Below, in pieces: positions 8,648 to 57,650 of a stretch of 64,000 nt of DNA. Both the position numbers and the translations under genes were made by a program. How positions within the stretch are numbered: the first letter of the stretch is position 1; each line of letters starts with the position of its first letter. The stretch comes from Ostreococcus lucimarinus (taxonomy: Eukaryota): NCBI GenBank assembly GCA_000092065.1, contig CP000585.1; one strand, 5' to 3'. Under the pieces are notes generated by a model. The model was not told the DNA's origin and did no database searches. It was given only the letters and a program-made list of their open reading frames with translations.

Positions 8648-9803
8648 CATGCCGCTCGCGACATCGCGCGCTAAGAAACACGACGCCATCGACGACGCGT
8701 TGACGGCGGAAGACGCGCGAGAACACGCGGATAAGTTGGCGAAATCTTTGTCCATCTTCGCCACGATCCCGCGCGCCATCGCCGAGGCGCACATTCGTTT
8801 ACGAGGTCGAGCGTGTCCAGACGAGCGCGCGAGCGACGCCGACGTGCGAGGCGCGCTACTGAAAGCGCTGAGCGATGAAGTCTTGGCCGAGCGAGAGTGT
8901 AAGCTAAAGGGAACGAAGTTTGAGCCGTACGTGAACGCACGGCCGAAGCCGGCTGCGGCTGCAGCGGCGGCTCGAACGGGACGGACGACGACGCGCGCGG
9001 TGGTCGATGGCGATCGTCGAAGCGCGTCGAGAGAGACGAAAATAATCGGTGGCGATCGTGGAGACGGCTCCGATAGCGATAGTTCGGTTGGTGTGGCGAG
9101 CAAATTCGTGCCACGGGAAATCGAAGACGAAGACGAAGACGAAGACGAAGACGAAGACGAAGACGAAGACGCGACGACGAGCGACGACGAGGAAGAAGAG
9201 TATAGCAGTGACGGAGATTATAGCGGCGAAGATGACTACGCCGATGACGGTGGAAATTTCTTCGGTCGAGCGGCAGAGGAACCGCCGGCACCTGAAGGGG
9301 CGAATCCGTTCGCGAGCATGGGGGACGTCGATTTCGGCGAAGAGGCGCGCGCACAAATCGAAGAAGCGAAGCGTATCGTGGCCGAACGCAAGGCGCAAGC
9401 GTCGAATTTAGCGGATGCATTAGCGAGCCTACAAACGTCGGACCCGGTGTCGCCGACGCCTTCAGGCCGTGTCGCGTTCAGCGACAAGGGCGACGACGTT
9501 GCCAGCATCGCCGGCTCCATCGCGGGTTCAGACTTCACCGACCGCTTCGATGCGATATCAATAGCTTCCATCGCCGCCACGCTCGGATCTGACGCCACAG
9601 ATCGAGTTGCAGACGTCGACGGGAGTGAATTCGACGTCGCCAGTCTCGCATCTCATGGCACGCATCGTGCGACCACCGACCTCGGCTCGGACGACGAGCG
9701 CGAAGCCGCAATTTTCGAGAGCGAGGACGAGCGCGACAGCGTCAGTTCGGACGAGCGTCACGGCGCCAAGGAAAATGCTCCACCATCGCCTCCATCACCG
9801 TAG
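8648..9803 (+). CDS. Hypothetical acidic low-complexity protein
   Basis: The track ORF at 8517 starts on GTG; the first ATG is at 8648. It contains a (GAAGAC)8 repeat encoding EDEDEDED... and S/D-rich stretches. No recognised domain. Confidence 0.4.
9123..9170 (+). repeat. (GAAGAC)8 in-frame hexanucleotide repeat
   Basis: Seen directly; encodes (ED)8 in the acidic ORF. Confidence 0.8.
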
Positions 9804-10019
9804 TAGCTCGCTTTAACACAACGCACCGTACGCGATACTCGCGCTCGACGGGCGCGAACGCCGCGCTCGGGGCAAACTGAAATCGCCACGTCACCGTCGC
9901 CGAAAAGGTCAATCGAAACGCGTCGTCCCGCACTTCTCGACCGCCTCGGTGCGCGCGCGCGACGCGCGCCCGACGACGCACGCCGCGCTTCGTAAACTCT
10001 CGCGTCTCGCGCGGTCGTC

Positions 10020-11708
10020 ATGACGGCGCCGAGCGTGAGCAACGGCACGACGCGTTCGCTGATTTGGTTTCGCAAAGCGCTGCGCGTCCACGATAATCCC
10101 GCTCTCGCCGCGGGCATCGCGCGCGCGAAGAGCGCGCAACCGGTGTTCGTGCTCGATCCGTGGTTCTGTAAGCCCTCGCGGGTGGGGGCGAATCGCATGC
10201 GGTTCTTGTTGCAATCGCTGCGCGACTTGGACGCGACGCTGCGAGAACGCGGCAGTTCGCTGCTGGTGCTGCACGGCGAACCGCGAGTGGTGTTGCCGCG
10301 AGCGTGCAAGACGTGGAAGGTTGATTTGGTGACGTGGGAACACGATATCGAACCGTATGCGAAAATGAGAGACACCGCGGTGCGAGGCGCGCTGGAGCGC
10401 GCGGGAGTAGAGTGCGCGTCGTCGAGCGGACACACGCTGTACGACGTGGAGGAGATGTTGGCGAAGTGTCATGGGAAACCACCGACGACGTATTCGCAGT
10501 TTTTGAAGATTGTAGATAAAATGGGTGCACCTGCGGCCGCTTTGGATGCGCCGAAGGCGATGCCGGCGCCGTTCACGGGGACAGCAGAGGAGACGAAGGA
10601 ATTAGTCGCGGGAGTGGCGGATGCGTACGGGATCCCCACTTTGGAGGAGCTCGGTTACGAAGCCATGCATGACGACGAAGGTTTTCAAGCGATCGGAGGT
10701 GAAACCGAAGGCTTGAGACGTCTACGCAGACAACTGTCGCGCACGGAATGGGTGCACACGTTTCAAAAGCCAGATACAAATCCCACGACGCTTTTTCATG
10801 CCTTGGGCGCGAAAAAGCCAAAGCCAAAGAGTCCGTTCGAAATCGCAGCGCGAGACGCGGGAAGCAAAAATGACGCAACAAACACTGCAGCGAATAGTGA
10901 TATGCTGATGACACCGTCCACGACAGCGCTGAGTCCGTACATGAAATTCGGTTGCGTGTCGCCGCGAGTGTTTTATCACGAGCTCAACGCCGTGCTCGCA
11001 AAGTTTGAGGGCAAAGGTCAACCTTCGCAACCGCCGGTGAGTCTCATGGGACAACTGATGTGGCGCGAATTCTACTATCTCGTCGGCGCGGGGACGCCGA
11101 ATTTCGATAAGATGGAAGGAAATCCAATCTGCAGGCAAATTCCTTGGAACAAGGATCGTGAGCTCTTCGCGGCTTGGGAGAACGCGCAAACCGGGTTCCC
11201 TTGGATCGACGCCGCGATGACCCAGCTTCGCCTCGAGGGATGGATCCATCACTTGGCTCGACACGCCGTGGCGTGCTTCCTGACCCGTGGTGATCTATTC
11301 GTGCACTGGGAGTGGGGCAGAGACACGTTCGATCGCGACCTCGTCGACGCCGATTGGGCGCTGAACAACGGCAACTGGATGTGGCTCTCGTGTTCGTGTT
11401 TCTTTTACCAATATTTCCGAGTGTACGGTCCGCACTCGTTCGCGAAAAAGTACGACAAGGACGGCGCGTACGTCAAGCACTACCTCCCCGTGCTGAAGAA
11501 TATGCCCGCCAAGTACGTGTACGAACCTTGGCTCGCCCCTCTCGACGTGCAGAAGAAAGCCGGTTGCGTCGTCGGCGTCGATTATCCCGCTCCGATCGTC
11601 GACCACGCCACGGCGAGCAAGGCGTGCATAGATAAGATCGCCACCGCTTACGCCGCTCACAAGGACGCCACCGCGGTGGCTGGGAAGAAGCGTAAAGCCG
11701 GCGAATAA
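10020..11708 (+). CDS. Cryptochrome/photolyase family: (6-4) photolyase or animal-type cryptochrome
   Basis: N-terminal LIWFRKALRVHDNPAL (photolyase alpha/beta domain). C-terminal WLSCSCFFYQYFRVYGPHSFAKKYDKDGAYVKHYLPVLKNMPAKYVYEPWLAP matches the FAD-binding-domain consensus of (6-4) photolyases (WLSCSSFFQQFF..YCP....DPNGDYIRRYLP.L...PAKYIYDPW.AP). Confidence 0.9.
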   Translation: MTAPSVSNGTTRSLIWFRKALRVHDNPALAAGIARAKSAQPVFVLDPWFCKPSRVGANRMRFLLQSLRDLDATLRERGSSLLVLHGEPRVVLPRACKTWKVDLVTWEHDIEPYAKMRDTAVRGALERAGVECASSSGHTLYDVEEMLAKCHGKPPTTYSQFLKIVDKMGAPAAALDAPKAMPAPFTGTAEETKELVAGVADAYGIPTLEELGYEAMHDDEGFQAIGGETEGLRRLRRQLSRTEWVHTFQKPDTNPTTLFHALGAKKPKPKSPFEIAARDAGSKNDATNTAANSDMLMTPSTTALSPYMKFGCVSPRVFYHELNAVLAKFEGKGQPSQPPVSLMGQLMWREFYYLVGAGTPNFDKMEGNPICRQIPWNKDRELFAAWENAQTGFPWIDAAMTQLRLEGWIHHLARHAVACFLTRGDLFVHWEWGRDTFDRDLVDADWALNNGNWMWLSCSCFFYQYFRVYGPHSFAKKYDKDGAYVKHYLPVLKNMPAKYVYEPWLAPLDVQKKAGCVVGVDYPAPIVDHATASKACIDKIATAYAAHKDATAVAGKKRKAGE

Positions 11709-46820: not shown

Positions 46821-48707
46821 GTGACGCCTGGTAAGGGGTTACGCGCGAGAGGGGGGGAGAATGTTGGGGATTCGAAGGGAGAGACGGCGAGGGCGAGGGC
46901 GACGGATGGCGCGACGGTTCCCCCCGAGGCGAGCGCGAGCGAGGCGAGCGAGGGACGAACGGTTGAGGTTAGCGGTGCGGGCGGCGAGGAAACGGGCGCG
47001 AACAAGTCTGAAAAAGATGGCGTGATGGCCGATGACACTGCGCGAGACGGTGGACATTCGACCGAGGCGTCTGGCGGCGCGCGCGTATCCGCGGCGCGCG
47101 CGTACGCCGACGTGCAGACGCCAAAGAACGTGAAGAAGATTGCGTGGCAAACCGCGGGGGCGTCGAACGAGCGCGTGACGAGAAAGAGTATGCGAAGTGC
47201 GACGCGGGGCGGTGCGCCGGTTTCGACGGTGAAGAACGTGAACGAAGATGCTGAGATGAAGGACGGCGCGGCGCCGCTCGACGACGCGCCGAAGAGCAAA
47301 TCTGTCGACGCCGCGAAGATTGAAGAGCAGCAGGATCCATCCTCGGCCGGGCAGTCGAGCGAAAAGCGGAAGCGCGCCAAAGCGCGAGCAAACGGTATGG
47401 CTTTTCTTAAGGCTGATATCCCCGCGCTCGCCGCACAGAATCCCAAAGCCGGCGGCGCGGTGGTTTCGACCGAGTTGAGAATTTCCCCCCGCACGCTCGC
47501 GATGGACAAGGCAAAGCAGAGTGCGTCGAAGGAACCCGCGGCGGCACCAGGGACGGCGACGATGACGTCTGAATCGAAAGAACCCGCATCAGCGCCCACA
47601 GTGGTGGCACCCGTCCTAGCGCCGCGCACCGTCGCTCCCAAGCATCCAGTCGATCAGCGCAGTTTGATGGAGTCGTTTATGATTCAGCCTGAGAATGTAT
47701 CGGCCGCGGTCGATCTCGCACCGTTGTCATCGTTCCAAAAAATGTCGGCGACGCCTTCTCAGGTGAAGGCTTTCCAATCTATGAGCTTGAACACGCCTTC
47801 TCACCAGGCAACTCTCGGCGAGCAATCCGCGCAACGTCCCAAACCGCCGTCTTCGCTGGCGCCGGTGACGACGGCGGCTGAGGCGAACGATGTCATGAGT
47901 CGACTCAAGCGCGCGATGGAGGCTCGATCACGCGCGGACGAAGAGAACAAGCGTCAATTAGAGAGTGCGCTTCGACAAAAGGAAGAAGAGCGCAAGCGAC
48001 GCGAGATGGAGATGCAGGCGCGAAAGGCCAAGCAAGCTGATCAGGAAGCGCGCGAGCGAGAAGAACGACGCCTGCGTCAAGAGCGTTTGGCTCAGTTTCG
48101 ACTTCAAGAAGAAGAGGCGCAACGAAAGGCGGCGATGGAGAAGAGTAAGTGGGCAAAGATGCTTGAGGAACAAAAGAAGGCGACGTTTGACGTGTCGACG
48201 AAGCCAATGCCAGTGTCGTTGAAACGCACGAGCGGTCAATCTGGTTTCACGTCTTCCGCTTCTCACGAAGCAGAAAAGCGTCGCCGACTGCTCGAGAACG
48301 CGCAAGCGGCAATTCATGGCCATTCCCATCAATCTTCGGCCGCCATGCGCACACCCACTCGCTCCATCTTCAGGACCAATTTTGCTTCGTCTTCGTCGCA
48401 GCAGCAACGCACGCCGTTGGATTCGTATCCGATTTCACCCTATTGCAGCAGCGACAGCGAAGACGATGAGCGACCGAAAAAAATGATCCCGGGATGGGCT
48501 CGTGGCGACGCCCTCGTTCCCCAGTTGAAAGCGCAGTCTTATGTGGACCCGGATGACATCTTCCCGAACCCCAGCCTCACGTGCAGCCTCGGCAAAATCT
48601 TCAAAAAGTCTAGCCACGACCGCCGACGTAGCAGTAGCAACTGGGCGCACGACAGGTTAACGCTCCAAGAGGAGTTAAGTTACAAGCAAAAGATGGGATT
48701 TCGCTAA
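46821..48707 (+). CDS. INCENP: INCENP (inner centromere protein)-like: SAH coiled-coil + C-terminal IN-box (Aurora-binding); 5' end uncertain
   Basis: IN-box KMIPGWARGDALVPQLKAQSYVDPDDIFPNPSLTCSLGKIFKKSSHDRRRSSSNWAHD matches human [67 protein letters not shown]. Preceding it is an E/R/K-rich single alpha-helix region (EEERKRREMEMQARKAKQADQEAREREERRLRQERLAQFRLQEEEAQRKAAMEK). The track start 46821 is GTG; the first in-frame ATG is at 47025. GT motifs at 46827/46841 and R-rich upstream ORFs (46221..46694) allow an additional 5' exon. Confidence 0.7.
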   Translation: MTPGKGLRARGGENVGDSKGETARARATDGATVPPEASASEASEGRTVEVSGAGGEETGANKSEKDGVMADDTARDGGHSTEASGGARVSAARAYADVQTPKNVKKIAWQTAGASNERVTRKSMRSATRGGAPVSTVKNVNEDAEMKDGAAPLDDAPKSKSVDAAKIEEQQDPSSAGQSSEKRKRAKARANGMAFLKADIPALAAQNPKAGGAVVSTELRISPRTLAMDKAKQSASKEPAAAPGTATMTSESKEPASAPTVVAPVLAPRTVAPKHPVDQRSLMESFMIQPENVSAAVDLAPLSSFQKMSATPSQVKAFQSMSLNTPSHQATLGEQSAQRPKPPSSLAPVTTAAEANDVMSRLKRAMEARSRADEENKRQLESALRQKEEERKRREMEMQARKAKQADQEAREREERRLRQERLAQFRLQEEEAQRKAAMEKSKWAKMLEEQKKATFDVSTKPMPVSLKRTSGQSGFTSSASHEAEKRRRLLENAQAAIHGHSHQSSAAMRTPTRSIFRTNFASSSSQQQRTPLDSYPISPYCSSDSEDDERPKKMIPGWARGDALVPQLKAQSYVDPDDIFPNPSLTCSLGKIFKKSSHDRRRSSSNWAHDRLTLQEELSYKQKMGFR

Positions 48708-48781
48708 CATTATTCTAGCAATGTAAACGATACGCTACATACGGTACTGCTGTTCGCTTGCTCGCTCGCTTACTCGCTCGC

Positions 48782-50590
48782 CTATGTCTTGACGGGATGG
48801 CCGTTTTCATCCAAACCTTCGACGCGCGGAAAGAGAGCGAGCTTTTCAACCTTAGTTCCCGGCTTCAATCCGCCCCATTTCGTTCGTTGTGCGATCGATC
48901 CCTCACCAAGGCCGACTCCAGCGTCGAATTCCGCCATCTTGTTGGGCATCAAAGGCTCCAACAACACCGCGGCGATGCGAAGCGCTTCGAGGCACTGGTA
49001 CAAACAAGCCGCCAATTCGGCGCTCTTTGACTCGTCCTTAGCCATGCGGAAAGGCTCGGTTTCCGTGATGAATAAATCGACATCCATGACGATGTTTTTC
49101 GCCGCCGCTGCGGCGCGAGGAAGGTCCAACTTGTCGTACGCCGTCAACGCGTCTTGAACGTGCGCGCTCGTGCGCGCCGGCCAGTCCCAGTTATCGAACG
49201 TCACCCGCGCACCGTTCGCCTCTTCGCTTCGCACTTCGCCGTCGAAGTACTTGTTAATCATCGCGGTCGTACGACTGACGCTGTTACCCATGGTATTCAC
49301 TAGATCGCTCGAATAGATTTCTTGAACGCGTTCGGCGCTAAAGTTGGCGTCTTGCGCGCCGATCGGTCCTTCGACGGCGAGATAGTATCGCATCGCATCC
49401 AAACCGTAATGCTCCTTGAATCGATCCATGCAAGCCAAATCAACGAAGTTACCTAGTGATTTCGACATCTTGCGTCCCTCGCGAATCCAGAAAGCGTGCG
49501 CGTGCACGCGCTGAGGAAGCGGCAAATCGAGCGCCATGAGGAGCGCGGGCCAAATCACCGAGTGAAACCAAGAAATTTCCTTGGCCATGATGTGCATGCT
49601 CGCGGGCCAGTACTTGGATCGATCGGCGTAAACGATGGAATCCTTACCATCGCCAAGACCGATAGCGGTGATGTAATTCATCAACGCGTCGATCCACACG
49701 TAAATGACGTGCTTTTCGTCATCCGGCATCGGGATGCCCCACTTGAAGTTGGTACGCGAAATCGGCACGTCGTTCAACCCTTCATTCAATCGACCGATCA
49801 TCTCGTTACGCCTCGCGCTGGGCGTCAAAAAATCTGGGTTATCAGCGTGCAGCGCCTCGAGCTCCTTCTGGAACTTGCTCAATCGAAAGTAATAATTTTC
49901 CTCGCTCGAGCGAACCATATCCTTTCCGCTAATCGGGCTCTTGTAATCGAGCTCCTTCGCCTTGGATTCGGTGTAATACTCCTCTTGTCCTTCGTCGTAC
50001 CACCCCTCAAAGCGACCCAAGTACACCGCATCCTTCTCCTGCAGCACCTTCACCAACGCCCGCACTTGTCTCTCGTGATAATCATCCGTCGTGCGAATAA
50101 ACTCGTCGAAGGAAATATCGTACGCCGTCATGACGTCGCGAAACTTTTGACTATTCTCATCCGCCAACGCCTGCGGTTCGATCCCTCGCTTCTCCGCGCT
50201 TTGCTCCACCTTCAATCCGTGTTCATCCGTGCCCGTGAGAAAGAACACGTCCTCCCCACGCGCCCTTCGATACCTCGCGTACGCGTCCGCCACCGTCGAC
50301 GTGTACACGTGCCCGATGTGCGGCTGATCGTTCACGTAATATATCGGCGTCGTCACGAACGTCGGCCCTTCGCTCGCGCGCGCCGCGACCGCGCATCCCC
50401 GTCCGCGCGTCGTCGCTCGCGTCGTCGCCGCGCGCGCGACGCATCCGCGCGTCGCCGTCGCCGTCGCCGCCGTCGCCGTCGTCGTCACCGCCGTCGTCCG
50501 CGTTCGTCCCGCGACCGTCGTCGCGCGTCGCGCGCGCGCCGTCCGTCGCGACAGCATCATCACCCGCGACGTCGCGGACGCGAGCGCCAT
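48782..50590 (-). CDS. MARS: Methionyl-tRNA synthetase, organelle-targeted type (class I aaRS)
   Basis: [44 protein letters not shown] (HIGH region) and KMSKSLGN motifs. T/A/R-rich N-terminal presequence. The true ATG is at 50590 (the track ORF extends to 51049 in the antisense of the SPO11 start). Confidence 0.9.
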
Positions 50591-50771
50591 CGCGCGCCGT
50601 CTCGCGCGTCGACGCGTGGCGCCGGCGTCGACGCCGCGCGCGCGTCCGACCGCGCGAGATTTCGCCGCGCGAGGGCGAACGCTGGTTTCGCCACTCGAGG
50701 GCGAAAAGACGGATTCGGATTCGAACGCGCGTCGCGACGGGCGCGACCGGCGCACGTCGACGCGCGCCGCG

Positions 50772-52046
50772 ATGGCGCCCGGACGGGCGAAGAAGCGCGC
50801 GACGCCGGACGAGGGCGTGAACTTCGCGCTGAAACGCCTGCGCGACGGGCGCGATGGACGCGAGGGCTCGCTCGATGAGGTGCTCGCAAAGGTGCGGGCG
50901 CTCGAGCGCGCGGTGAAGGCGAAGCGAGGCGGACGGCGGACGCTGGACGATCTCGGATTGGCGACGACGTATCGCGAGGTCGAGGACAGGGACGCGAGGG
51001 AGATCGCGGCGGCGATCGAGCAGGTGATGATCGCGGCGGCGAAGAGCATCGTGGCGGGCGACGGGTTCGAATACGTGCTGCCGAGTCGAGGGGCGACGGA
51101 TCAGGTGTACGTGGAGGCGCTCGATCGAATCGTGCTGAAGAATAAGACGACGAAAGCGAATTTTGCGGCGGTGTCGAGCGTGCGGAAGGTGACGATTCTG
51201 ACGCGGGTGATGCAGTTGGTGCACGGGGTGCTGAGTCGCGGGATTCACGTCACGAAGCGGGATTTGTTTTACACCGACGTCAAGTTGTTCAAGGATCAGA
51301 AGGATTCCGACGCGGTGTTGGACGATATTTCGTGCATGCTCGGATGCACGCGTAACTCGCTGCACGTCGTGGCGTCGGAAAAGGGCGTCGTCGTCGGACG
51401 GTTGCAATACAAGGAGGACGGCGACGAAATCGACTGCACGAAGATGGGAGTGGGCGGTAAGGCGATTCCGAGCAACATCGATAAAGTGAGGGATATGCGC
51501 ACCGACGCCAAGTTCGTACTGCTCGTCGAGAAAGATGCGGCGTTCATGCGCCTCGCCGAGGACCGATTTTACAACAAGTACCCGTGCATAATCATAACCG
51601 CCAAAGGACAACCCGACGTCGCGACGCGCTTGTTCTTGAGCAAGGTGAAGAGAGATTTGAAAATCCCGGTGTTAGCGCTGGTTGACGCCGATCCGTACGG
51701 GTTGAAAATCATCTCAGTGTACATGCAAGGTTCGAAGAACATGGCTTTCGATAGCGGAAACCTCACCACGCCCGATATCAAATGGCTCGGCGTCCGCCCG
51801 AGCGATTTGGACAAGTTCAAAATCCCCGAACAGTGTCGCCTAGAGATGACGGCAAAGGATATTGAAACGGGGCATCACATGCTCAACGAGGATTTCATTA
51901 AAAGCAACCCGGAGTGGGTGAAGGAAATCAACATCATGCTCGAAACGAAAACCAAGGCGGAAATTCAGTCGTTGAGTAGCTACGGCTTTCAATACCTGAG
52001 CGAGGTGTACTTGCCTTTGAAGCTGTTAGAAGGGGACTGGATTTAG
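50772..52046 (+). CDS. SPO11: SPO11/topoisomerase VI subunit A family (meiotic DSB-forming transesterase or Top6A)
   Basis: Toprim region [73 protein letters not shown] (E...DxD metal site, classic SPO11 motif V). The catalytic-Tyr winged-helix region is upstream. The ATG is at 50772 (track start 50616 is GTG). Whether this is SPO11-1/2 or TOP6A cannot be decided by eye. Confidence 0.85.
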
Positions 52047-52127
52047 ACGTTTGTACAATAGAAGACGACTCGAACGTAAATTTACTCGCTAAGAATCAAT
52101 CACTTGCACGGGCTATACTACTATTTG

Positions 52128-53231
52128 CTAGAACCAATGGAGCATCTTCCTTCCATTTGTGATGCTTTTTATCTCCGACTCGTGTTGCCGCACGATTCCG
52201 TCGCAACTGACGTAAATTTTGAGCTCGTTCAGGCGCAGCAGGCGCGCGAGGTACATGTCGATCACGAGGCTCGATGGCAAATGACGTAATATCTGCATAG
52301 CGCCTTTCCAGCTCACGACGATGACGGTCGTTCTCGAAAACGTCGTGAACGCCCTGAACAATTTCACTCCTTCGTCGGCGTTCGTCGGGCGACGAACTCT
52401 CACGCGGTGCAACCATGACGACGGGGCACGCCATACAGACTCGCGACAATACTCCGGATTCGCATCCAACGATATGATGTCGTAATCATCGGGTACTGAA
52501 TTCAGCAAGGTGCCAAACTTGCGCTCGAACAACTCAAAGTCTACGTTTGCGTCGTCTTCAAAGATTACGATGGATTGTTCGCGCACGGCGCGGTCTCTAC
52601 GCTCAGCCTCCATCCCAACCCTCAACGCCGTTTGAACGTCCGGCCACGGTTCCTCGCGCTCACCGTTTTGCGCCGACACGAAATTCGCCAGAATCCCAAA
52701 CGACGCTAAGTTTCCAATGGCGCTAAACCGAATCGCGTCGCCCTGGTACAACCGATGCTTCTCGATGTCCGCCGTGACGCTCGCGTACGCCGCTCGCGGA
52801 TGCACCAGCGCGTTCGCGTACGTGCGCCACGCGTTCTCCCCATCCCGTCTCGACCAAAACGTCCGAATCTTCCTGTTCTCCTCGTAGCGAACGACGTATC
52901 CTCGCCCCTCGATCTCTCGCGCCTGCTCCGCTCGCTCGAGCTTCGTCGCGTTCGTCGCCGCGCACGCCGTCGCGTGCCTCGACCGTTCCAACATCGCGCA
53001 CAACCGCCGCGCGTTCTCCGCGCGCTCGGGAATCCACGACGACGTCAACACGCGCGCCCGCGTCGGCGTCGCGCGCGCGCCCGCGTCGTCCCGCGTCGAC
53101 GCGCCGAACCACGCGTCCGTCCTCGTCCCAACCGACCCAAACGTTCGCGCCAAAACCAACGCGCAGACGACCGCCAGCGCGCACGCGCGCGCGCACCGTC
53201 GCGGTTTACGCCGCGCGACGCTCGGCGCCAT
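52128..53231 (-). CDS. Glycosyltransferase family 25-like (type-II membrane, LPS/collagen galactosyltransferase-type fold)
   Basis: N-terminal TM helix CARACALAVVCALVLA. IVIFEDDANVDFELFERKFGTLLNSVPDDYDIISLDANPEY fits the GT25 pattern ILEDDV.F...F...L...LP.DWDLIYLG, and the later VIDMYL fits the P-D-x-L block. Assignment is by motif memory only. Confidence 0.55.
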   Translation of the reverse strand: MAPSVARRKPRRCARACALAVVCALVLARTFGSVGTRTDAWFGASTRDDAGARATPTRARVLTSSWIPERAENARRLCAMLERSRHATACAATNATKLERAEQAREIEGRGYVVRYEENRKIRTFWSRRDGENAWRTYANALVHPRAAYASVTADIEKHRLYQGDAIRFSAIGNLASFGILANFVSAQNGEREEPWPDVQTALRVGMEAERRDRAVREQSIVIFEDDANVDFELFERKFGTLLNSVPDDYDIISLDANPEYCRESVWRAPSSWLHRVRVRRPTNADEGVKLFRAFTTFSRTTVIVVSWKGAMQILRHLPSSLVIDMYLARLLRLNELKIYVSCDGIVRQHESEIKSITNGRKMLHWF

Positions 53232-53342
53232 CGCCGCGCGCTCGGACGCGCGCGCGGTCGCCGCGGCGGCGCGCTCTGCCGTTCGAATCGTTTCGAGCGC
53301 TCGTCAGACGGCCGCGCGCGACGACCCGCGCGCGCGACGCGA

Positions 53343-53624
53343 ATGTCGCCGCCGTCCGTCCCGCGCGAGCTCGTGTACGCCATCGCGCGCGCCGCGTGGG
53401 TCGCGGACGACGATCGCGAGCGCCGCGAGCGCGGCGTCGAGCGCGAGTTCGACGCGACGGCGAAGCCGGAGGCGCTGGAGGTGATGGCGACGCTCGTCGA
53501 GGCGTTCGTCGAGGAGGCGACGCATCGCGCGTGCGCGCTGGCCACGCTCGAGGGCGCGCGCGCGGTGGACGGAGAACACCTCGAACGCGTGTTGCCGCAG
53601 TTGATGCTGGATTTCGCGGGGTGA
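53343..53624 (+). CDS. CENPX: CENP-X / MHF2 (FANCM-associated histone-fold protein 2)
   Basis: The 93-aa ORF MSPPSVPRELVYAIARAAW...KPEALEVMATLVEAFVEEATHRACALATLEGARAVDGEHLERVLPQLMLDFAG aligns along its whole length with human CENP-X (FRKELVSRLLHLHF...[49 protein letters not shown]), including the terminal [12 protein letters not shown] motif. It is embedded in the 3' end of a longer R-rich track ORF (52755..53624) and overlapped by antisense ORFs, so it is easy to miss. Confidence 0.75.
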   Translation: MSPPSVPRELVYAIARAAWVADDDRERRERGVEREFDATAKPEALEVMATLVEAFVEEATHRACALATLEGARAVDGEHLERVLPQLMLDFAG

Positions 53625-53831
53625 GCGCGACGGCGACGGCAGCGCGAGACGTCGCGGCGGCGGCGGCGACGGCGGCGACGATAGAGCGCGAGGATAGAAT
53701 GTAAAGAAATTAGAGGTTCACGCGCTTGAGTGCGTTAAAAGTGGTCGTCGCGCGCGCGGGGGACGAACGAGGCGGCGTCGAAACGGCGCCTCGTTCCAAC
53801 CGTCAAAGCTCCGAATCGCGGAAAACGATAA

Positions 53832-54416
53832 TCATCTCTCCGGTTCGGGATTACCGGCGACGGAGACTAAGTTGATGCAGTAGCGGTTACCGTTACGGTC
53901 TGGCAAATTATGTCCCAAGTGCGTTCCCGTCGTGCTGACGCACTCGCCGTCGCGCAAACATCGGACGTTTTCTTGCACCATCTCCGCGTCTCTGAAGCTC
54001 GGCCAACCGTGCGCTCTGGACTCCTTCTCGAATTCCGCCCACGTTCGCCCTCGAGGTGCGATGAAAAGCGGCGCGCCCGTCACTGAATCGTAATACGTCA
54101 CCTCGCCTTTATCCTTCACCTCGGAGATCCAGTTCGTGCTCCACGCGTACCCGGCGTGTTCCGCGTAGTGCCTGTTAAAGTTGCAAATTCGATCCGCGAG
54201 TTCGCGATCGCTGCCGTAGCGCAGATTCTTCATCACCGCGTGCTCGCTCGTGCCGTGCGCCTTTTGCGACATCACGCTCTCGTCGGCGACGATCGGCAGG
54301 CCCTTCAAACCTTCGGGTATCGGGGCGCCTTTGCATCCATCGGACACGCCCGGAATCTTCGCGCCGTCGAGGAACGCGCGCGTCGCGGGCGACGATCGCG
54401 ACGCGCTCGCGCCCAT
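53832..54416 (-). CDS. MsrB (SelR)-domain protein, methionine-R-sulfoxide reductase-like, with N-terminal MGxxxS motif
   Basis: C-terminal GWPSFRDAEM...HLGHNLPDRNGNRYCINLVS matches the MsrB signature (GWPSF...HLGHVF.DGP...RYCINS) with the catalytic Cys retained. The ATG at 54416 gives MGASASRSS (N-myristoylation-like). In-frame upstream ATGs (54476, 54608) would add an R-rich extension. Confidence 0.6.
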   Translation of the reverse strand: MGASASRSSPATRAFLDGAKIPGVSDGCKGAPIPEGLKGLPIVADESVMSQKAHGTSEHAVMKNLRYGSDRELADRICNFNRHYAEHAGYAWSTNWISEVKDKGEVTYYDSVTGAPLFIAPRGRTWAEFEKESRAHGWPSFRDAEMVQENVRCLRDGECVSTTGTHLGHNLPDRNGNRYCINLVSVAGNPEPER

Positions 54417-54553
54417 GATGGACGCCTTCGCGCGGAGTGGTCGCGCGATCAGGGACGCCCGCGCGGTGCGCATCGCGTCGACGAGTGGCGCGCGCGTCGC
54501 GGTCGAGCGATGACGTGTCCCGCTGGCGCGACGTCCGGACAGCTCGACGCGCG

Positions 54554-55753
54554 ATGCGGGCGTCGACGGCGACCGCGGCGCGCGCGCGCGCGCGCGGAAA
54601 CGTCGCACCGTCGACGCGACGCGCGGAGGCGACGCGGGCGCGCGCGGTGAGCCGACGCGAGGGTGTTTTACTCGCGACGATGCTTTCGGTGAGTCTCGCG
54701 GGACGACGACGCGCGACGGCGGCGGAGGAAGACGAGGACGGCGCGACGACGACGACGACGACTGAGACGAAGAAAAGGGTCGTGATTACCGGGTCGAACT
54801 CGGGGATCGGGCTCGACGCGGCGACGAAACTCGCGGCGAGCGGGGACTGGGTCGTCGTGTTGGCGTGCCGAACGCGCGCGAAGGCGGAGGCGGCCAAGGC
54901 GAATATATTGTCTGCGACGAACGCGGACGGGGCGAACATCGAGTGCGTCGAGTGCGATTTGTCGAGTTTGGACTCGGTGCGCGCTTTCGTGCGCGAGGTG
55001 AGGAAAACGGGCGGTGTCGACGCTTTGTGTCTGAACGCCGGCGTGGAATACAGCGGCGATCCCGTGGTGCATCGAACGAGGGACGGTTTCGAGGAGACGT
55101 TCGGTGTGAACCATTTGGGGCACTTTTTGCTCGCCAACTTGTTATTGGAGGATCTCGAAAAGTCGAGCGAGGCGCATCCGCGAATCGTCGTGACGGCGAG
55201 CGAGGTGCACGACCCGGCGTCGCCGGGAGGATCGGTGGGCAGCGGCGCGCACATCGGCGACTTGCGAGGCCTCGAACGCGACGGCGCGGCGTTCGAGATG
55301 GCGGACGGTGAAGCGTTCGACGCCGATAAGGCGTACAAAGACTCTAAGTTGGCGAACATGCTCTTCATGTACGAGCTCGAGCGACGCCTGCAGGCGAGAA
55401 ACTCGAAAATCACGGTGAACGCGTTCGGTCCGGGACTCATCACGCGCACCGGCTTATTTCGCAACCAAAATCCTCTCTTCGTCAAAGTCTTCGACTTCGC
55501 CACGAACGAGATTTTCCACGTCGCAGAAACCGTTTCCGGAGGTGGGAACTGCTTAGTCTTCATGCTCACCGACCCTTCGCTCGAGGGCAGCGGGGGCGTG
55601 TACTGGAACAACGATTTGTCGCCCGGCGCGCCGCCGTCCCTCGTCGCCGCCGGACACAAATTCGCTCAAACCAACTCTTCTGTCGAATCAAACGATGCCG
55701 TCGAAGCGCAAAAGCTTTGGAAGCTCAGCGAATCGCTCGTCGGGTTGGCCTAG
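54554..55753 (+). CDS. Short-chain dehydrogenase/reductase, light-dependent protochlorophyllide oxidoreductase (POR)-like
   Basis: [45 protein letters not shown] matches POR [63 protein letters not shown] matches POR YKDSKVCNMLTM (catalytic Y-x3-K), and GVYWNND matches POR GVYWSWNN. The start is either ATG 54554 (S/T/R/A-rich transit-peptide-like extension) or 54680. Confidence 0.8.
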   Translation: [399 protein letters not shown]

Positions 55754-55847
55754 CGCCGCGTCGCGCTCGTTGTTATATACTCGATACGTCGCGTACGCTC
55801 GCGCTCGCGCTCTCGCACTCGCTCGCTCGTCACAACTCGTCGTCGCC

Positions 55848-56660
55848 ATGCGCACCGTCGCCCACGCGCGCGTCTCCCCGACGTCGTCGTCCCGGCCATC
55901 GACGTCGGCGTCTGCGTTGGCGCGTCGCGCCTCCTTCCGCGTCGCCGTGCGCGGCGACACCGCGCGCGACGCGTTTTTCGCGCTCGGTCCCGCTCGACCG
56001 CGCGCGCGCCGCGCGCACGCCGCGCCGCGCGCGTTCCTGTGGTGGAGCCGCGAGAAGGAGCTGCGCAAGCGATGGAAGCAGCTCGCCGACTTCGCCGCGG
56101 ACGAGATCCCGGAGAGCTCGCCGTTGGCACGCTCGAAAGGACTCATCCAGTGGGTGGGTGAATATCCGCTCACGGCGGCGTCCGCGGCGACGGCCATCGC
56201 CGGCGGCGTCAGCGCGCTGATCTCCGCCGCGGTGTTGCCCGTCGTCGTCGGCGTCGCCGTGCTCGCGCTGCCGGGCTTGCTGTTCGCGTTCGTCGGTACG
56301 GCGGCGGTGGCGTCGCTCGTCGGAGCGCTCGTGCTGCTGCTGTCGCTGCCGGCGTTGGGATTTTTGTCGGTGTTCGGAGGGACGATCGCCGCGGCGGCGA
56401 GCGCAAAGTTATTACCGATCGCGATCATCGGGTCGGGACTGTTGTTCGGCGCGAACGCGATCAAGTGGGGGATGTCGGGCGACGCTCGCGCGGAGCGCTT
56501 GAAGGCGGGCGCCGACGTCGACGACGACGCTTGGTCGCCTCGAAACGTCAACGCCGTCGACGACACGGACGAAAGCAGCAGCTCGGAAGATTACGAGGAA
56601 ACAGTTAAACGTAATTTCGACGCGCGTTTGCGCGCCTTAGACGAAAAGAAGAAGAAGTGA
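55848..56660 (+). CDS. Hypothetical membrane protein with plastid-transit-peptide-like N-terminus and G/A/V/L-rich TM helices
   Basis: The ATG at 55848 opens MRTVAHARVSPTSSSRPSTSASALARRASFRVAVRG.... Two or three long hydrophobic segments (AAVLPVVVGVAVLALPGLLFAFVGTAAVASLVGALVLLLSLPALGFLSVFGG) are followed by an acidic C-terminus. The opposite-strand ORF 55688..56566 is A/S/T-rich and judged antisense. Confidence 0.45.
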   Translation: MRTVAHARVSPTSSSRPSTSASALARRASFRVAVRGDTARDAFFALGPARPRARRAHAAPRAFLWWSREKELRKRWKQLADFAADEIPESSPLARSKGLIQWVGEYPLTAASAATAIAGGVSALISAAVLPVVVGVAVLALPGLLFAFVGTAAVASLVGALVLLLSLPALGFLSVFGGTIAAAASAKLLPIAIIGSGLLFGANAIKWGMSGDARAERLKAGADVDDDAWSPRNVNAVDDTDESSSSEDYEETVKRNFDARLRALDEKKKK

Positions 56661-56718
56661 TGTTGTAGCCCGTGTAAAGCGTCACTCCTCGCCGCGCTCT
56701 ATCCAGTAACCACCGACG

Positions 56719-57650
56719 ATGACCGCGCTCGAAGAAATCTCCACCGACGAGCTCATGCGCGAGATTCAGCGGCGGCTGGAGTGCCAAAATAAGCCAGACA
56801 AGCGCTTGATCCTCATCGGTCCGCCGGGATGCGGCAAGGTGCGCGTTTTCGACCGTCAACTTCGACCGTCAAAACCTCAAAAAGCGCGCTTCGGGACACC
56901 CGACTGACGACGCGTCTCGACGCCGAACAGGGAACGCAATCGCCTAAGATTAAATCCGACCACTGCCTGTGCCACCTCGCGACGGGGGACATGTTACGCG
57001 CGGCGGTGGCGGCGAAAACGCCGAACGGCGTGAAGGCCAAGCAAGCCATGGAGAGCGGAGCGCTCGTGAGCGACGATATCGTGGTCGGGTGCGTGTGGAG
57101 CGTTGCGATGGCGCGTTCGAGCGCGAGTGATGATACACGAGGCCCTACGCTGTGTTCTTGTGTCCTGCGCGGTGACTGACAGAGATGCTTCACTTGTGAA
57201 TGTAGGATTATCGAGGAAGCCGTCAAGGCGCCCGAGTGCCGAAACGGTTTCATTTTGGACGGGTTCCCGAGAACGGTGCCGCAAGCGGTGAAGTTGGACG
57301 AGATGCTCTCTGCGAAAGGGGTATCGATCGATGCAGTGCTGAACTTTGAAGTGCCGGATGAGGTACTCGTAGAAAGGGTGGAGGGACGATGGATCCACCC
57401 CGCGAGCGGGCGATCGTACCACACGAAGTTTGCTCCGCCGAAGGTTGAAGGGAAGGATGATTTCACGGGAGAACCTTTAATTAAGCGTAAGGATGACAAC
57501 GCGGAGACCCTTAAGTCACGCTTGCAAGCGTTTCACACGCAAACGCAACCGGTTATCGATTACTACGCGATAGCAAAGAAGGTTACTGAAATTCACGCCA
57601 ACAAACCAGCCAGCGATGTCGAAGCGCAAATTGCAGCGGCGTTGAAGTAG
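56719..57650 (+). CDS. ADK: Adenylate kinase (AK2/ADK-type, long LID), 3 exons
   Basis: Exon 1 56719..56838 (MTALEE...[12 protein letters not shown]-loop). Exon 2 56931..57088 ([53 protein letters not shown]). Exon 3 57206..57650 ([34 protein letters not shown]...[61 protein letters not shown]). The joined protein is colinear with AK2. Donors are AAG|GTGCGCG and GG|GTGCGTG; acceptors are AACAG| and TGTAG|. Confidence 0.9.
56839..56930 (+). other. Spliceosomal intron 1 of adenylate kinase (92 nt, phase 0)
   Basis: GTGCGCG...CCGACTGACGACG...GAACAG; the ACTGAC branch-like motif lies 23 nt upstream of the acceptor. Confidence 0.8.
57089..57205 (+). other. Spliceosomal intron 2 of adenylate kinase (117 nt, phase 2)
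   Basis: GTGCGTG...GGTGACTGACAGAG...AATGTAG; the ACTGAC motif lies ~30 nt upstream of the acceptor. Confidence 0.8.

Follow-up and report, generated by a model that had tools for sequence, protein, structure and literature searches.

A probable CENP-X/MHF2 orthologue in an apparent annotation gap of the Ostreococcus lucimarinus genome

CENP-X (MHF2) and CENP-S are obligate partners, and the members of the CENP-X family are short proteins of about 80-120 amino acids. Arabidopsis MHF1 and MHF2 serve FANCM as cofactors and limit class II crossovers in meiosis (PMC4132730), while the CENP-X of the moss Physcomitrella patens was shown by experiment to lack enrichment at kinetochores and yet to be needed for chromosome segregation and cytokinesis (PMC6433463). 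CENP-T and CENP-W have been detected neither in Mamiellophyceae nor in land plants. For one member of the former, O. lucimarinus CCE9901, the kinetochore catalogue of van Hooff et al. 2017 (PMC5579357, Dataset EV1) lists a CENP-S but no CENP-X.

We have analysed a window of 64,000 nucleotides of the O. lucimarinus genome (the whole stretch of DNA under study, from contig CP000585.1) and conclude, with a probability of about 92%, that it contains on its plus strand a single-exon gene encoding the 93-residue CCE9901 orthologue of CENP-X/MHF2. The family was known already, and its biology is ordinary here and unchanged by the locus. The gene and its immediate surroundings comprise the following features.

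53343..53624, plus strand: CENP-X/MHF2 coding sequence, a single exon of 93 codons plus TGA
53232..53342, no strand: divergent spacer of 111 bp between the start codons of the 367-aa gene (minus) and CENP-X (plus)
52128..53231, minus strand: 367-aa lineage-restricted protein, the divergent neighbour, with a predicted N-terminal hydrophobic helix and an EDDAN motif
53625..53831, no strand: convergent 3' intergenic region of 207 bp, shared with the minus-strand MsrB gene, in which GC drops to about 0.60
53832..54473, minus strand: MsrB (methionine sulfoxide reductase B), convergent downstream gene (Pfam SelR, E=6e-5)

Translation of 53343..53624 on the plus strand gives MSPPSVPRELVYAIARAAW...GEHLERVLPQLMLDFAG followed by the stop, which confirms the 93-codon ORF described in the first-pass annotation of this DNA. 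Its GC content at the three codon positions (GC1/2/3) is 0.79/0.47/0.93. The proposed start at 53343 is the sole plus-strand ATG in 53100..53420, with none between 53100 and 53343, so that a scanning ribosome coming from any transcription start in the spacer would begin there. Sequence comparison indicates orthology to CENP-X/MHF2 within a conserved gene order: the closest named relatives are the O. tauri 'Centromere protein X' (Q019W8) and the MHF2/CENP-X proteins of Sorghum, Selaginella and Zostera, and the order INCENP, MetRS, SPO11, CENP-X, MsrB, SDR is maintained in the loci that we designate L007-L010. The substitutions indicate that the CENP-X frame is under purifying selection, with a dN/dS of about 0.21 (0.32/1.50) between the window and L007, and of 0.38 between the window and its closest relative, L010, the latter value resting on only 14 substitutions; all the amino-acid changes relative to L010 fall within residues 1-46 and the C-terminal half is identical. 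These ratios below 1 at two divergence levels, together with the invariance of the C-terminal half, argue against a conserved but unexpressed relic, or a mere UTR or promoter of the adjacent genes. Such a reading would agree with a reference annotation that seemingly has no gene model here, but several diverged Ostreococcus lineages and hundreds of environmental contigs carry the ORF intact, its orthologue in O. tauri has been annotated as a gene and the partner CENP-S has been kept in the genome, all of which makes it very improbable. Expression of the CENP-X gene and the exact ends of its transcript are predicted.

As judged from the numbering of accessions and from database sources, the gene is apparently missing from the CCE9901 reference proteome: the reference accessions flanking CENP-X leave no room for it, and the exact 93-aa protein has no accession in nr, UniRef or EukProt, whereas its neighbours have accessions. 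The reference annotation of 2007 apparently has a gap of 1.8 kb (52047..53834) that holds both CENP-X and the 367-aa gene, which is the only reason that we can offer for CENP-X looking 'hidden', and this stretch seems to hide in the 367-aa neighbour a second unannotated gene. The word 'hidden', used in the first-pass annotation, is accurate for nr, UniRef, EukProt and the CENP-X set of van Hooff et al., from all of which the protein is absent, but not for metagenomes, where it is both predicted and named. Generic metagenome gene callers predict exactly the 93-aa CENP-X in six of the six places shown (24 contigs read), contrary to the expectation that gene callers would mis-start or miss the gene; the index lists the 93-aa model in 928 blocks, and the IMG-type annotation name of the sequence is 'centromere protein X'. 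Set against the locus found here, the published profile of a CENP-S without CENP-X would reflect an annotation artefact and no gene loss. The van Hooff orthologue set likewise lacks an INCENP-box ORF situated about 5 kb upstream. Our search for literature on Ostreococcus CENP-X and kinetochore retrieved none.

The homology of 53343..53624 extends far beyond chance. A Pfam search, proposed as a check with the first-pass annotation, matched CENP-X (PF09415) with 48.2 bits against a gathering cut-off of 25 (E=1.4e-12), aligning protein residues 41-91 to profile positions 20-74 of 74; the runner-up family, CBFD_NFYB_HMF, was eight orders of magnitude weaker (E=1.8e-4, 22 bits). Searched against the PDB with phmmer, the protein retrieved chicken CENP-X with E=5.8e-9 and human CENP-X with about 4e-7, and a family profile built from 55 sequences reached the chicken protein with E=2.6e-23 (chain residues 4-80) and the human one with about 4e-20. 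The alignment of this profile with CENP-X of chicken and human begins at alpha1 and ends with the final residue. To that extent the alignment had rightly been called end-to-end with human CENP-X, but it is interrupted by an insertion of 14 residues between alpha1 and alpha2 relative to the vertebrate proteins. The product is predicted to be a small single-domain protein made of one histone fold (alpha1-L1-alpha2-L2-alpha3), with an AlphaFold2 model of pLDDT 93.8 and the following helices.

53364..53432, plus strand: predicted helix alpha1, residues 8-30 (AlphaFold2)
53466..53549, plus strand: predicted long central helix alpha2, residues 42-69 (AlphaFold2)
53571..53618, plus strand: predicted helix alpha3, residues 77-92 (AlphaFold2), with the C-terminal signature HLERVLPQLMLDF

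Helix alpha1 carries the motif ELVYAIARAAW, common to plant-type homologues, and is lengthened by the acidic/basic stretch DDDRERRERG. In the 55-sequence alignment, E58 of alpha2 is invariant and F55, R62 and A67 nearly so, while H79, E81, L84, P85, Q86, L89, D90 and F91 are at least 90% conserved. The protein terminates in HLERVLPQLMLDFAG, the extreme C-terminal signature of the family, and the same ending occurs across eukaryotes in the CenpX.fa file of van Hooff et al. 2017. The top five Foldseek matches in the PDB are all MHF2/CENP-X chains, with target-normalised TM values of 0.78-0.82, and other histone folds, Dpb4 included, are about 100-fold weaker. A chance resemblance to CENP-X of a protein from some other histone-fold family (NF-YB/Dpb4-like, TAF12-like or CENP-W-like) could account for the weak Pfam matches to CBFD_NFYB_HMF, just over its cut-off, and to TFIID_20kDa, the more so as Foldseek sees all histone folds as alike. 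It is nevertheless extremely unlikely, given a CENP-X profile score of 48 bits against 22 for NF-YB, an extreme C-terminal LPQL(M/L)LDF that is specific to CENP-X sequences, five best structural matches that all belong to CENP-X and stand well clear of Dpb4, and named orthologues that are CENP-X/MHF2. Profile, predicted fold, selection and named relatives thus support the original proposal of a CENP-X/MHF2 histone-fold gene starting at 53343.

This gene stands head-to-head with the minus-strand 367-aa ORF, whose start codon ends at 53231, so that the distance of 111 bp reported beforehand is exact. The spacer presumably holds a bidirectional promoter and the 5' UTRs; compared with its counterpart in L010, which measures 121 bp, it shows 11 substitutions and 22 gap columns. 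On the other side, 53835..54473 is 100% identical to the 213-aa reference model ABO96205.1 (MsrB). No structured RNA family was returned when 52000..54700 was scanned with Rfam at E<=1. The 367-aa gene has been inserted between SPO11 and CENP-X in the O. lucimarinus lineage: the window and L010 contain it, the syntenic loci L007-L009 do not. Its omega is 0.52, its exact sequence is public as a 'hypothetical protein' and only five homologues were found; the family alignment contains a conserved (F/L)EDDAN motif. The 'GT25-like' identity first given to this neighbour went unconfirmed, its basis being a Pfam GT25 (PF01755) match that stays below threshold (E=0.25, 11.6 bits, cut-off 24), and a similarly weak sub-threshold match was seen in only two of the five homologues. 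The profile of the 367-aa family retrieved only chance matches among PDB sequences, to ribosomal protein uL14, and the AlphaFold2 model, obtained from a 5-sequence alignment with a pLDDT of 36.6, is unusable for fold comparison.

The CENP-X gene is overlapped or extended by several other stop-free frames.

52755..53342, plus strand: in-frame upstream extension (289-aa ORF), a non-coding shadow antisense to the 367-aa gene
53304..53579, minus strand: 91-aa antisense shadow ORF, in register (offset 0) with the CENP-X codons
53045..53545, minus strand: 166-aa antisense shadow ORF, offset 2 (GC1/2/3 = 0.67/0.82/0.80)
53396..53704, plus strand: 102-aa shadow ORF, offset 2 (GC1/2/3 = 0.85/0.78/0.53)

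As the first-pass annotation had pointed out, the six-frame ORF listing shows 53343..53624 only as the tail, in the same frame, of an R-rich 289-aa ORF (52755..53624), and the two overlapping antisense ORFs that it mentioned are those of 166 and 91 aa. Local GC reaches 73-77% at the divergent 5' end, and 49% of the window bases lie beneath at least four stop-free stretches of at least 90 codons; the overlapping ORFs of 289, 166, 102 and 91 aa are by-products of this high GC, which leaves them without stops. The open CENP-X frame, taken by itself, is at chance level too, all six frames being virtually free of stops in the local 73% GC.

It would be tempting to see a genuine overlapping gene in one of the two antisense ORFs or in the plus-strand ORF 53396..53704, since they span 91-166 codons and one antisense frame stays open across the CDS in L007. 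This is exceedingly unlikely: none of the three has a Pfam match, stretches of such length are piled four-deep over nearly half of the window, and the substitution pattern matches the sense frame. The 91-aa ORF is an in-register mirror of a coding frame that has a GC3 of 0.93 and contains no TTA, CTA or TCA codons, the only ones from which mirror-frame stops arise, so that this frame is left without stops and its openness in relatives follows the sense frame. In the lower-GC orthologous locus L007, the antisense frames are broken except for the one already mentioned.

The weakest reading, of practically negligible probability, makes the true product a 289-aa protein starting at ATG 52755 with CENP-X as its C-terminal domain, for which one may cite that, counted upstream from the stop, 305 codons are open in the window (from 52710) and 249 in L010, and that the ORF listing reports just the long ORF, but against which stand a GC1/2/3 of 0.86/0.66/0.64 in the extension, without the coding signature of the real genes here, which have GC3 well over GC2; its position antisense to the 367-aa gene, which has homologues of its own; the spacer length of 111 bp in the window against 121 bp in L010, a difference of 10 bp that is no multiple of 3, so that the extension and CENP-X have different relative frames in the two loci and their frame link is broken; the absence of the extension in L007-L009, with a frame that opens just 25 codons before the ATG in L007 and L008, where the 367-aa gene is absent; the lack of any Pfam match in the ORF outside its CENP-X tail, and of its exact sequence in a collection of 15 billion proteins, in a family of much shorter members; and the need for a transcript from 52755 to cross the promoter and the first 159 codons of the neighbour.

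Three variants of the CENP-X protein (P0034, P0037 and P0040) were considered as evidence of an intron or isoform and rejected: each is a single-member variant from a single contig and jumps to another frame, which points to assembly frameshifts. One of the three comes from a pilon-polished long-read assembly. P0034 switches into the frame of the plus-strand ORF 53396..53704, into which frameshifted contigs read, and looks like an assembly error.

The partner of the single-exon CENP-X gene has been catalogued in O. lucimarinus as OLUC005238 (van Hooff 2017, Dataset EV1), which matches Pfam CENP-S over its cut-off (E=9.8e-14). Within the window, tblastn gave no match with human CENP-S and a chance match (E=0.44) with O. 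lucimarinus CENP-S, and the CENP-S gene lies outside it, elsewhere in the same genome. In a homology search with the histone-fold region of human CENP-S, the best 120 of 590 matches were essentially all vertebrate CENP-S. By analogy with the crystal structures 4DRA and 3B0B (Yan 2010 and Singh 2010, as cited through PMC4132730), CENP-X would pair with CENP-S by a histone-fold handshake, and two S-X dimers would, according to the same sources, form an (S-X)2 tetramer able to bind double-stranded and branched DNA. The CenpT.fa and CenpW.fa files of van Hooff 2017 hold no Ostreococcus, Micromonas or Bathycoccus entries; the same proteome-based set also missed CENP-X, so that the absence of CENP-T and CENP-W there could likewise be a false negative. 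That no CENP-T or CENP-W has been detected, together with the role of the Arabidopsis MHF proteins, favours a FANCM-type cofactor in DNA repair/recombination over a CENP-T-W-S-X kinetochore particle as the most likely role of the O. lucimarinus protein. By analogy with the moss, the protein could also serve chromosome segregation at sites other than the kinetochore.

Across the sampled Ostreococcus lineages, CENP-X adjoins SPO11, and INCENP lies about 5 kb away. Where genomes are closely related and collinear, gene order is by default expected to be kept. To our knowledge, a sexual cycle has never been observed in Ostreococcus. We regard as very improbable a more speculative scenario in which the CENP-S/X of Mamiellophyceae, with its extended charged alpha1, would do a lineage-specific job, which could be tied to cryptic meiosis, and in which the adjacency could reflect a co-regulation of the break-making SPO11 and the crossover-limiting MHF2.

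The significance of the locus is that of a minor annotation correction, both to the reference gene set and to the published kinetochore catalogue. In compact GC-rich genomes, short genes located at divergent 5' ends beneath longer stop-free frames may drop from proteomes, and presence/absence studies based on incomplete reference proteomes inherit such errors.

Among the known systems, the vertebrate CENP-X/MHF2 proteins (human 4DRA, 4E44 and 4NDY; chicken 3B0B) share 31-37% identity with the O. lucimarinus protein, and its predicted fold superposes on theirs. The vertebrate protein also takes part in the kinetochore CENP-T-W-S-X particle, whereas Ostreococcus has no listed CENP-T or CENP-W. 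A CENP-X of the green lineage is also present in Physcomitrella patens, where the recognisable CCAN is limited to CENP-C, O, S and X; Mamiellophyceae seem to lack CENP-T, CENP-W and the remaining CCAN. The plant MHF2 proteins (Arabidopsis At1g78790 and the 'MHF2 homolog' of Sorghum and Selaginella) are only about 32-38% identical to the O. lucimarinus protein, but resemble it in their histone fold, in the motif at the C-terminus, in P-[DE]-L-[IV]-x-x-I-F-K-x-x-W as the alpha1 motif and in carrying, between alpha1 and alpha2, a long insertion not found in vertebrates. This insertion is shorter in O. lucimarinus than in plant MHF2 and is predicted to prolong the helix with a stretch rich in D, E and R. 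Plants and Ostreococcus also agree in having CENP-S/MHF1 and no detected CENP-T or CENP-W. The direct orthologue is the O. tauri 'Centromere protein X' (Q019W8 / XP_003079149.1, 90 aa), a gene included in the O. tauri reference proteome, whereas that of O. lucimarinus is apparently absent from its own. The O. tauri protein matches Pfam CENP-X as well (E=9.4e-12), is 69% identical to the O. lucimarinus protein over 89 residues, and shares with it both the N-terminal ELV.AIAR..W helix and the ...LPQLMLDFAG end.

The plus-strand open reading frame at 53343..53624 is a real, if unremarkable, gene that encodes the Ostreococcus lucimarinus orthologue of CENP-X (MHF2). As stated in the first-pass annotation, it consists of an ATG, 92 more codons and a TGA (translation: MSPPSVPRELVYAIARAAWVADDDRERRERGVEREFDATAKPEALEVMATLVEAFVEEATHRACALATLEGARAVDGEHLERVLPQLMLDFAG), appears in the ORF list only as the tail of a longer ORF, is overlapped by two antisense ORFs and lies head-to-head with a neighbour beginning 111 bp upstream. 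The features concerned are:

53343..53624, plus strand, CENP-X
52755..53624, plus strand, arginine-rich 289-aa ORF in the same frame
53396..53704, plus strand, 102-aa ORF at offset 2 to the CENP-X frame
53045..53545, minus strand, 166-aa antisense ORF
53304..53579, minus strand, 91-aa antisense ORF
52128..53231, minus strand, divergent 367-aa ORF

The CENP-X identity proposed in that annotation is borne out by Pfam (PF09415, E=1.4e-12; score 48.2 bits, gathering threshold 25), with CBFD_NFYB_HMF, the runner-up among histone-fold families, reaching only E=1.8e-4. In a single-sequence search of PDB sequences the significant matches were CENP-X chains only (chicken 3B0B_C, 5.8e-9; human 4NDY, 4E44 and 4DRA, ~4e-7), and HMMER, run exhaustively over 1.84 billion cluster representatives, returned 107 matches at E<=1e-3, nearly all short proteins aligned through the final residue. 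Across a 55-sequence CENP-X alignment E58 is invariant, and conservation is 90% or higher at F55, R62, A67, H79, E81, L84, P85, Q86, L89, D90 and F91. The corresponding profile matches chicken CENP-X (E=2.6e-23, chain residues 4-80), human CENP-X (~4e-20) and yeast Mhf2 (4e-3), its alignment to solved CENP-X requiring one insertion, of 14 residues, after alpha1. Since the profile reaches alpha1, the N-terminal 40 residues, unaligned by Pfam, are homologous too; the alpha1 motif and a long insertion are likewise common to plant MHF2 proteins. The AlphaFold2 model based on the 55-sequence alignment (pLDDT 93.8) has helices at 8-30, 42-69 and 77-92, the histone-fold layout, and the top five PDB hits from Foldseek are without exception chains of MHF2/CENP-X (TM 0.78-0.82 normalised to the target, 31-37% identity), followed by Dpb4-Dpb3, about 100-fold weaker.

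The open frame alone is uninformative, because at the local 73% GC essentially all six frames are without stops; over the whole 64 kb (61.6% GC), stop-free runs of at least 90 codons overlie 49% of bases four or more deep, and runs of at least 289 codons overlie 39% two or more deep. The 91-aa antisense ORF is an in-register mirror of the sense frame, open because its stops can arise only from sense TTA, CTA and TCA, all absent from the CENP-X frame. Pfam gave no match for any ORF overlapping CENP-X, and an Rfam scan of 52000..54700 no family match. The long overlapping ORFs are what extreme GC content can be expected to generate where two 5' ends diverge.

Composition and selection point instead to the 93-codon frame. 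Its GC1/2/3 of 0.79/0.47/0.93 carries the signature of the neighbouring genes, with GC3 well above GC2, against 0.86/0.66/0.64 in the upstream in-frame extension. Compared with the closest related locus, L010 (92% amino acid identity), dN/dS is 0.037/0.098 = 0.38, with all seven amino acid changes within residues 1-46, and compared with the related locus L007 (64% identity) it is 0.32/1.50; judged from these ratios, purifying selection acts on the frame. The 289-aa ORF shares the frame but was rejected as a gene on three grounds. The start-to-start spacer measures 111 bp in the window against 121 bp in L010, so that the extension has no conserved frame relationship to CENP-X. In the related loci L007, L008 and L009 the 367-aa gene is missing and SPO11 is directly followed by CENP-X, and in L007 the open frame starts only 25 codons upstream of the CENP-X ATG. 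Finally, the exact 289-aa sequence had no match in a collection of 15 billion proteins in which the 93-aa sequence was found. As 53343 is the sole plus-strand ATG within 53100..53420, scanning to the first AUG yields the 93-aa product wherever in the spacer transcription begins. Three single-contig protein variants (P0034, P0037 and P0040) keep a normal N-terminal part and switch frame near the C-terminus, P0034 running into the offset-2 ORF at 53396..53704; we rejected them as isoforms, since they look like assembly frameshifts, L009 (5001..5336) belonging to a long-read assembly polished with pilon, where adjacent genes are fragmented too.

The first-pass annotation labelled the 367-aa neighbour 'GT25-like', a label that was not confirmed: Pfam Glyco_transf_25 scores E=0.25 with 11.6 bits, short of the cut-off of 24, with sub-cut-off matches in just two of five homologues, the only ones among 5.8 billion clusters. 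Sequence search found no solved relatives, and the AlphaFold model failed (pLDDT 36.6). The protein's N-terminus is predicted to form a hydrophobic helix, and an (F/L)EDDAN motif is conserved; these features are compatible with a type-II membrane glycosyltransferase without proving one. Present between SPO11 and CENP-X in the window and L010, absent in L007-L009, and evolving faster than its neighbours (omega 0.52 versus 0.13-0.19), the gene looks like a lineage-specific insertion.

The same annotation called CENP-X hidden and expected gene callers to mis-start or miss it. With respect to the reference gene set, and to publications that rely on it, this holds; it does not hold for gene callers generally, which produce exactly the 93-aa model on the metagenome contigs inspected (11-17 differing positions from the window in 12.3 kb). 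The sequence occurs on 401 contigs (NCBI, JGI/IMG, ENA, Logan and Tara sources), one source naming it 'centromere protein X'; together with the O. tauri orthologue (Q019W8, 'Centromere protein X') and plant relatives named 'MHF2 homolog', this means that the family assignment is not new. By contrast, the exact sequence has no nr, UniRef or EukProt accession, whereas its neighbours do. Four proteins of the reference strain CCE9901 are each 100% identical to the window translation (SPO11, ABO95960.1; SDR, ABO95961.1; MsrB, ABO96205.1; TPR protein, ABO96206.1), which makes the window CCE9901 itself or DNA that cannot be told apart from that strain at the four genes. The plus-strand SPO11 and SDR accessions are consecutive (ABO95960, ABO95961), and the UniProt series runs from A4RX02 (SPO11) and A4RX03 (MsrB) to A4RX07 (TPR), the three intervening numbers exactly matching the three genes that separate MsrB from TPR. 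This numbering leaves no slot for CENP-X or the 367-aa gene; we infer that CENP-X lacks a gene model in the reference, and the 367-aa gene seems to be unannotated there as well. Independent literature evidence agrees: the orthologue sets of van Hooff et al. 2017 (PMC5579357), which drew on the CCE9901 proteome, include Bathycoccus and Micromonas but zero Ostreococcus in CenpX.fa, and O. lucimarinus OLUC005238 in CenpS.fa. In O. lucimarinus the pattern of CENP-S without CENP-X arises from annotation and reflects no real loss, and correcting it is the sole added value of a finding already known in kind.

Several features of the surrounding region deserve mention. The 628-aa plus-strand ORF at 46821..48707 clearly matches the INCENP ARK-binding box (PF03941, E=8.5e-13; score 48.4 bits, cut-off 22), yet the INCENP file of the van Hooff catalogue (Incenp.fa, PMC5579357) contains Micromonas and Bathycoccus but zero Ostreococcus, so that INCENP may, like CENP-X, be wrongly missing there. 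INCENP, SPO11/TopoVI-A and CENP-X/MHF2, all three genes of chromosome biology, lie within 7 kb (46821..53624), in the same order in all related loci fetched, most likely the ordinary collinearity of close relatives. Adenylate kinase is split into two consecutive plus-strand ORFs, 116 and 124 aa long and each matching PF00406 (~56829..57179 and 57276..57650; 9487..9837 and 9934..10308 in the related locus L001), and is one 180-aa ORF in L007, probably reflecting a short intron in O. lucimarinus. GC along 50000..57000 oscillates with gene orientation, with peaks of 0.74-0.78 where 5' ends diverge (50300-50900, 53000-53600, 54350-54650, 55850-56300) and troughs of 0.45-0.60 where 3' ends converge (51800-52250, 53750-54200, 55250-55550). 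This implies a steep 5'-to-3' fall in every gene of the interval, and the peaks explain the many shadow ORFs over short genes at divergent promoters. Start codons across this GC-rich region are uncertain: several reference models are N-terminally shorter than the metagenome ORFs (51027..52043, 54761..55750, 53835..54473), SPO11 having 339 aa versus 424 or 476 and the SDR/protochlorophyllide-reductase-like protein, tagged 'partial', 330 versus 399, while MsrB has 213 versus 194.

The CENP-S/CENP-X tetramer has two known contexts, with CENP-T and CENP-W at kinetochores and with FANCM in repair and recombination. The partner is encoded in the same genome (OLUC005238, Pfam CENP-S E=9.8e-14). Extrapolating from solved MHF complexes and such biochemistry as is cited in PMC4132730, CENP-X would pair with CENP-S through a histone-fold handshake, and two such dimers would form a tetramer binding duplex and branched DNA. 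The CENP-T and CENP-W orthologue sets have zero Mamiellophyceae entries (PMC5579357), absences that share the proteome-based approach that missed CENP-X; moss CENP-X is needed for segregation though not enriched at kinetochores (PMC6433463); and in Arabidopsis FANCM with MHF1 and MHF2 limits class II crossovers (PMC4132730). By analogy with these systems, a role as FANCM cofactor would be favoured for O. lucimarinus CENP-X.
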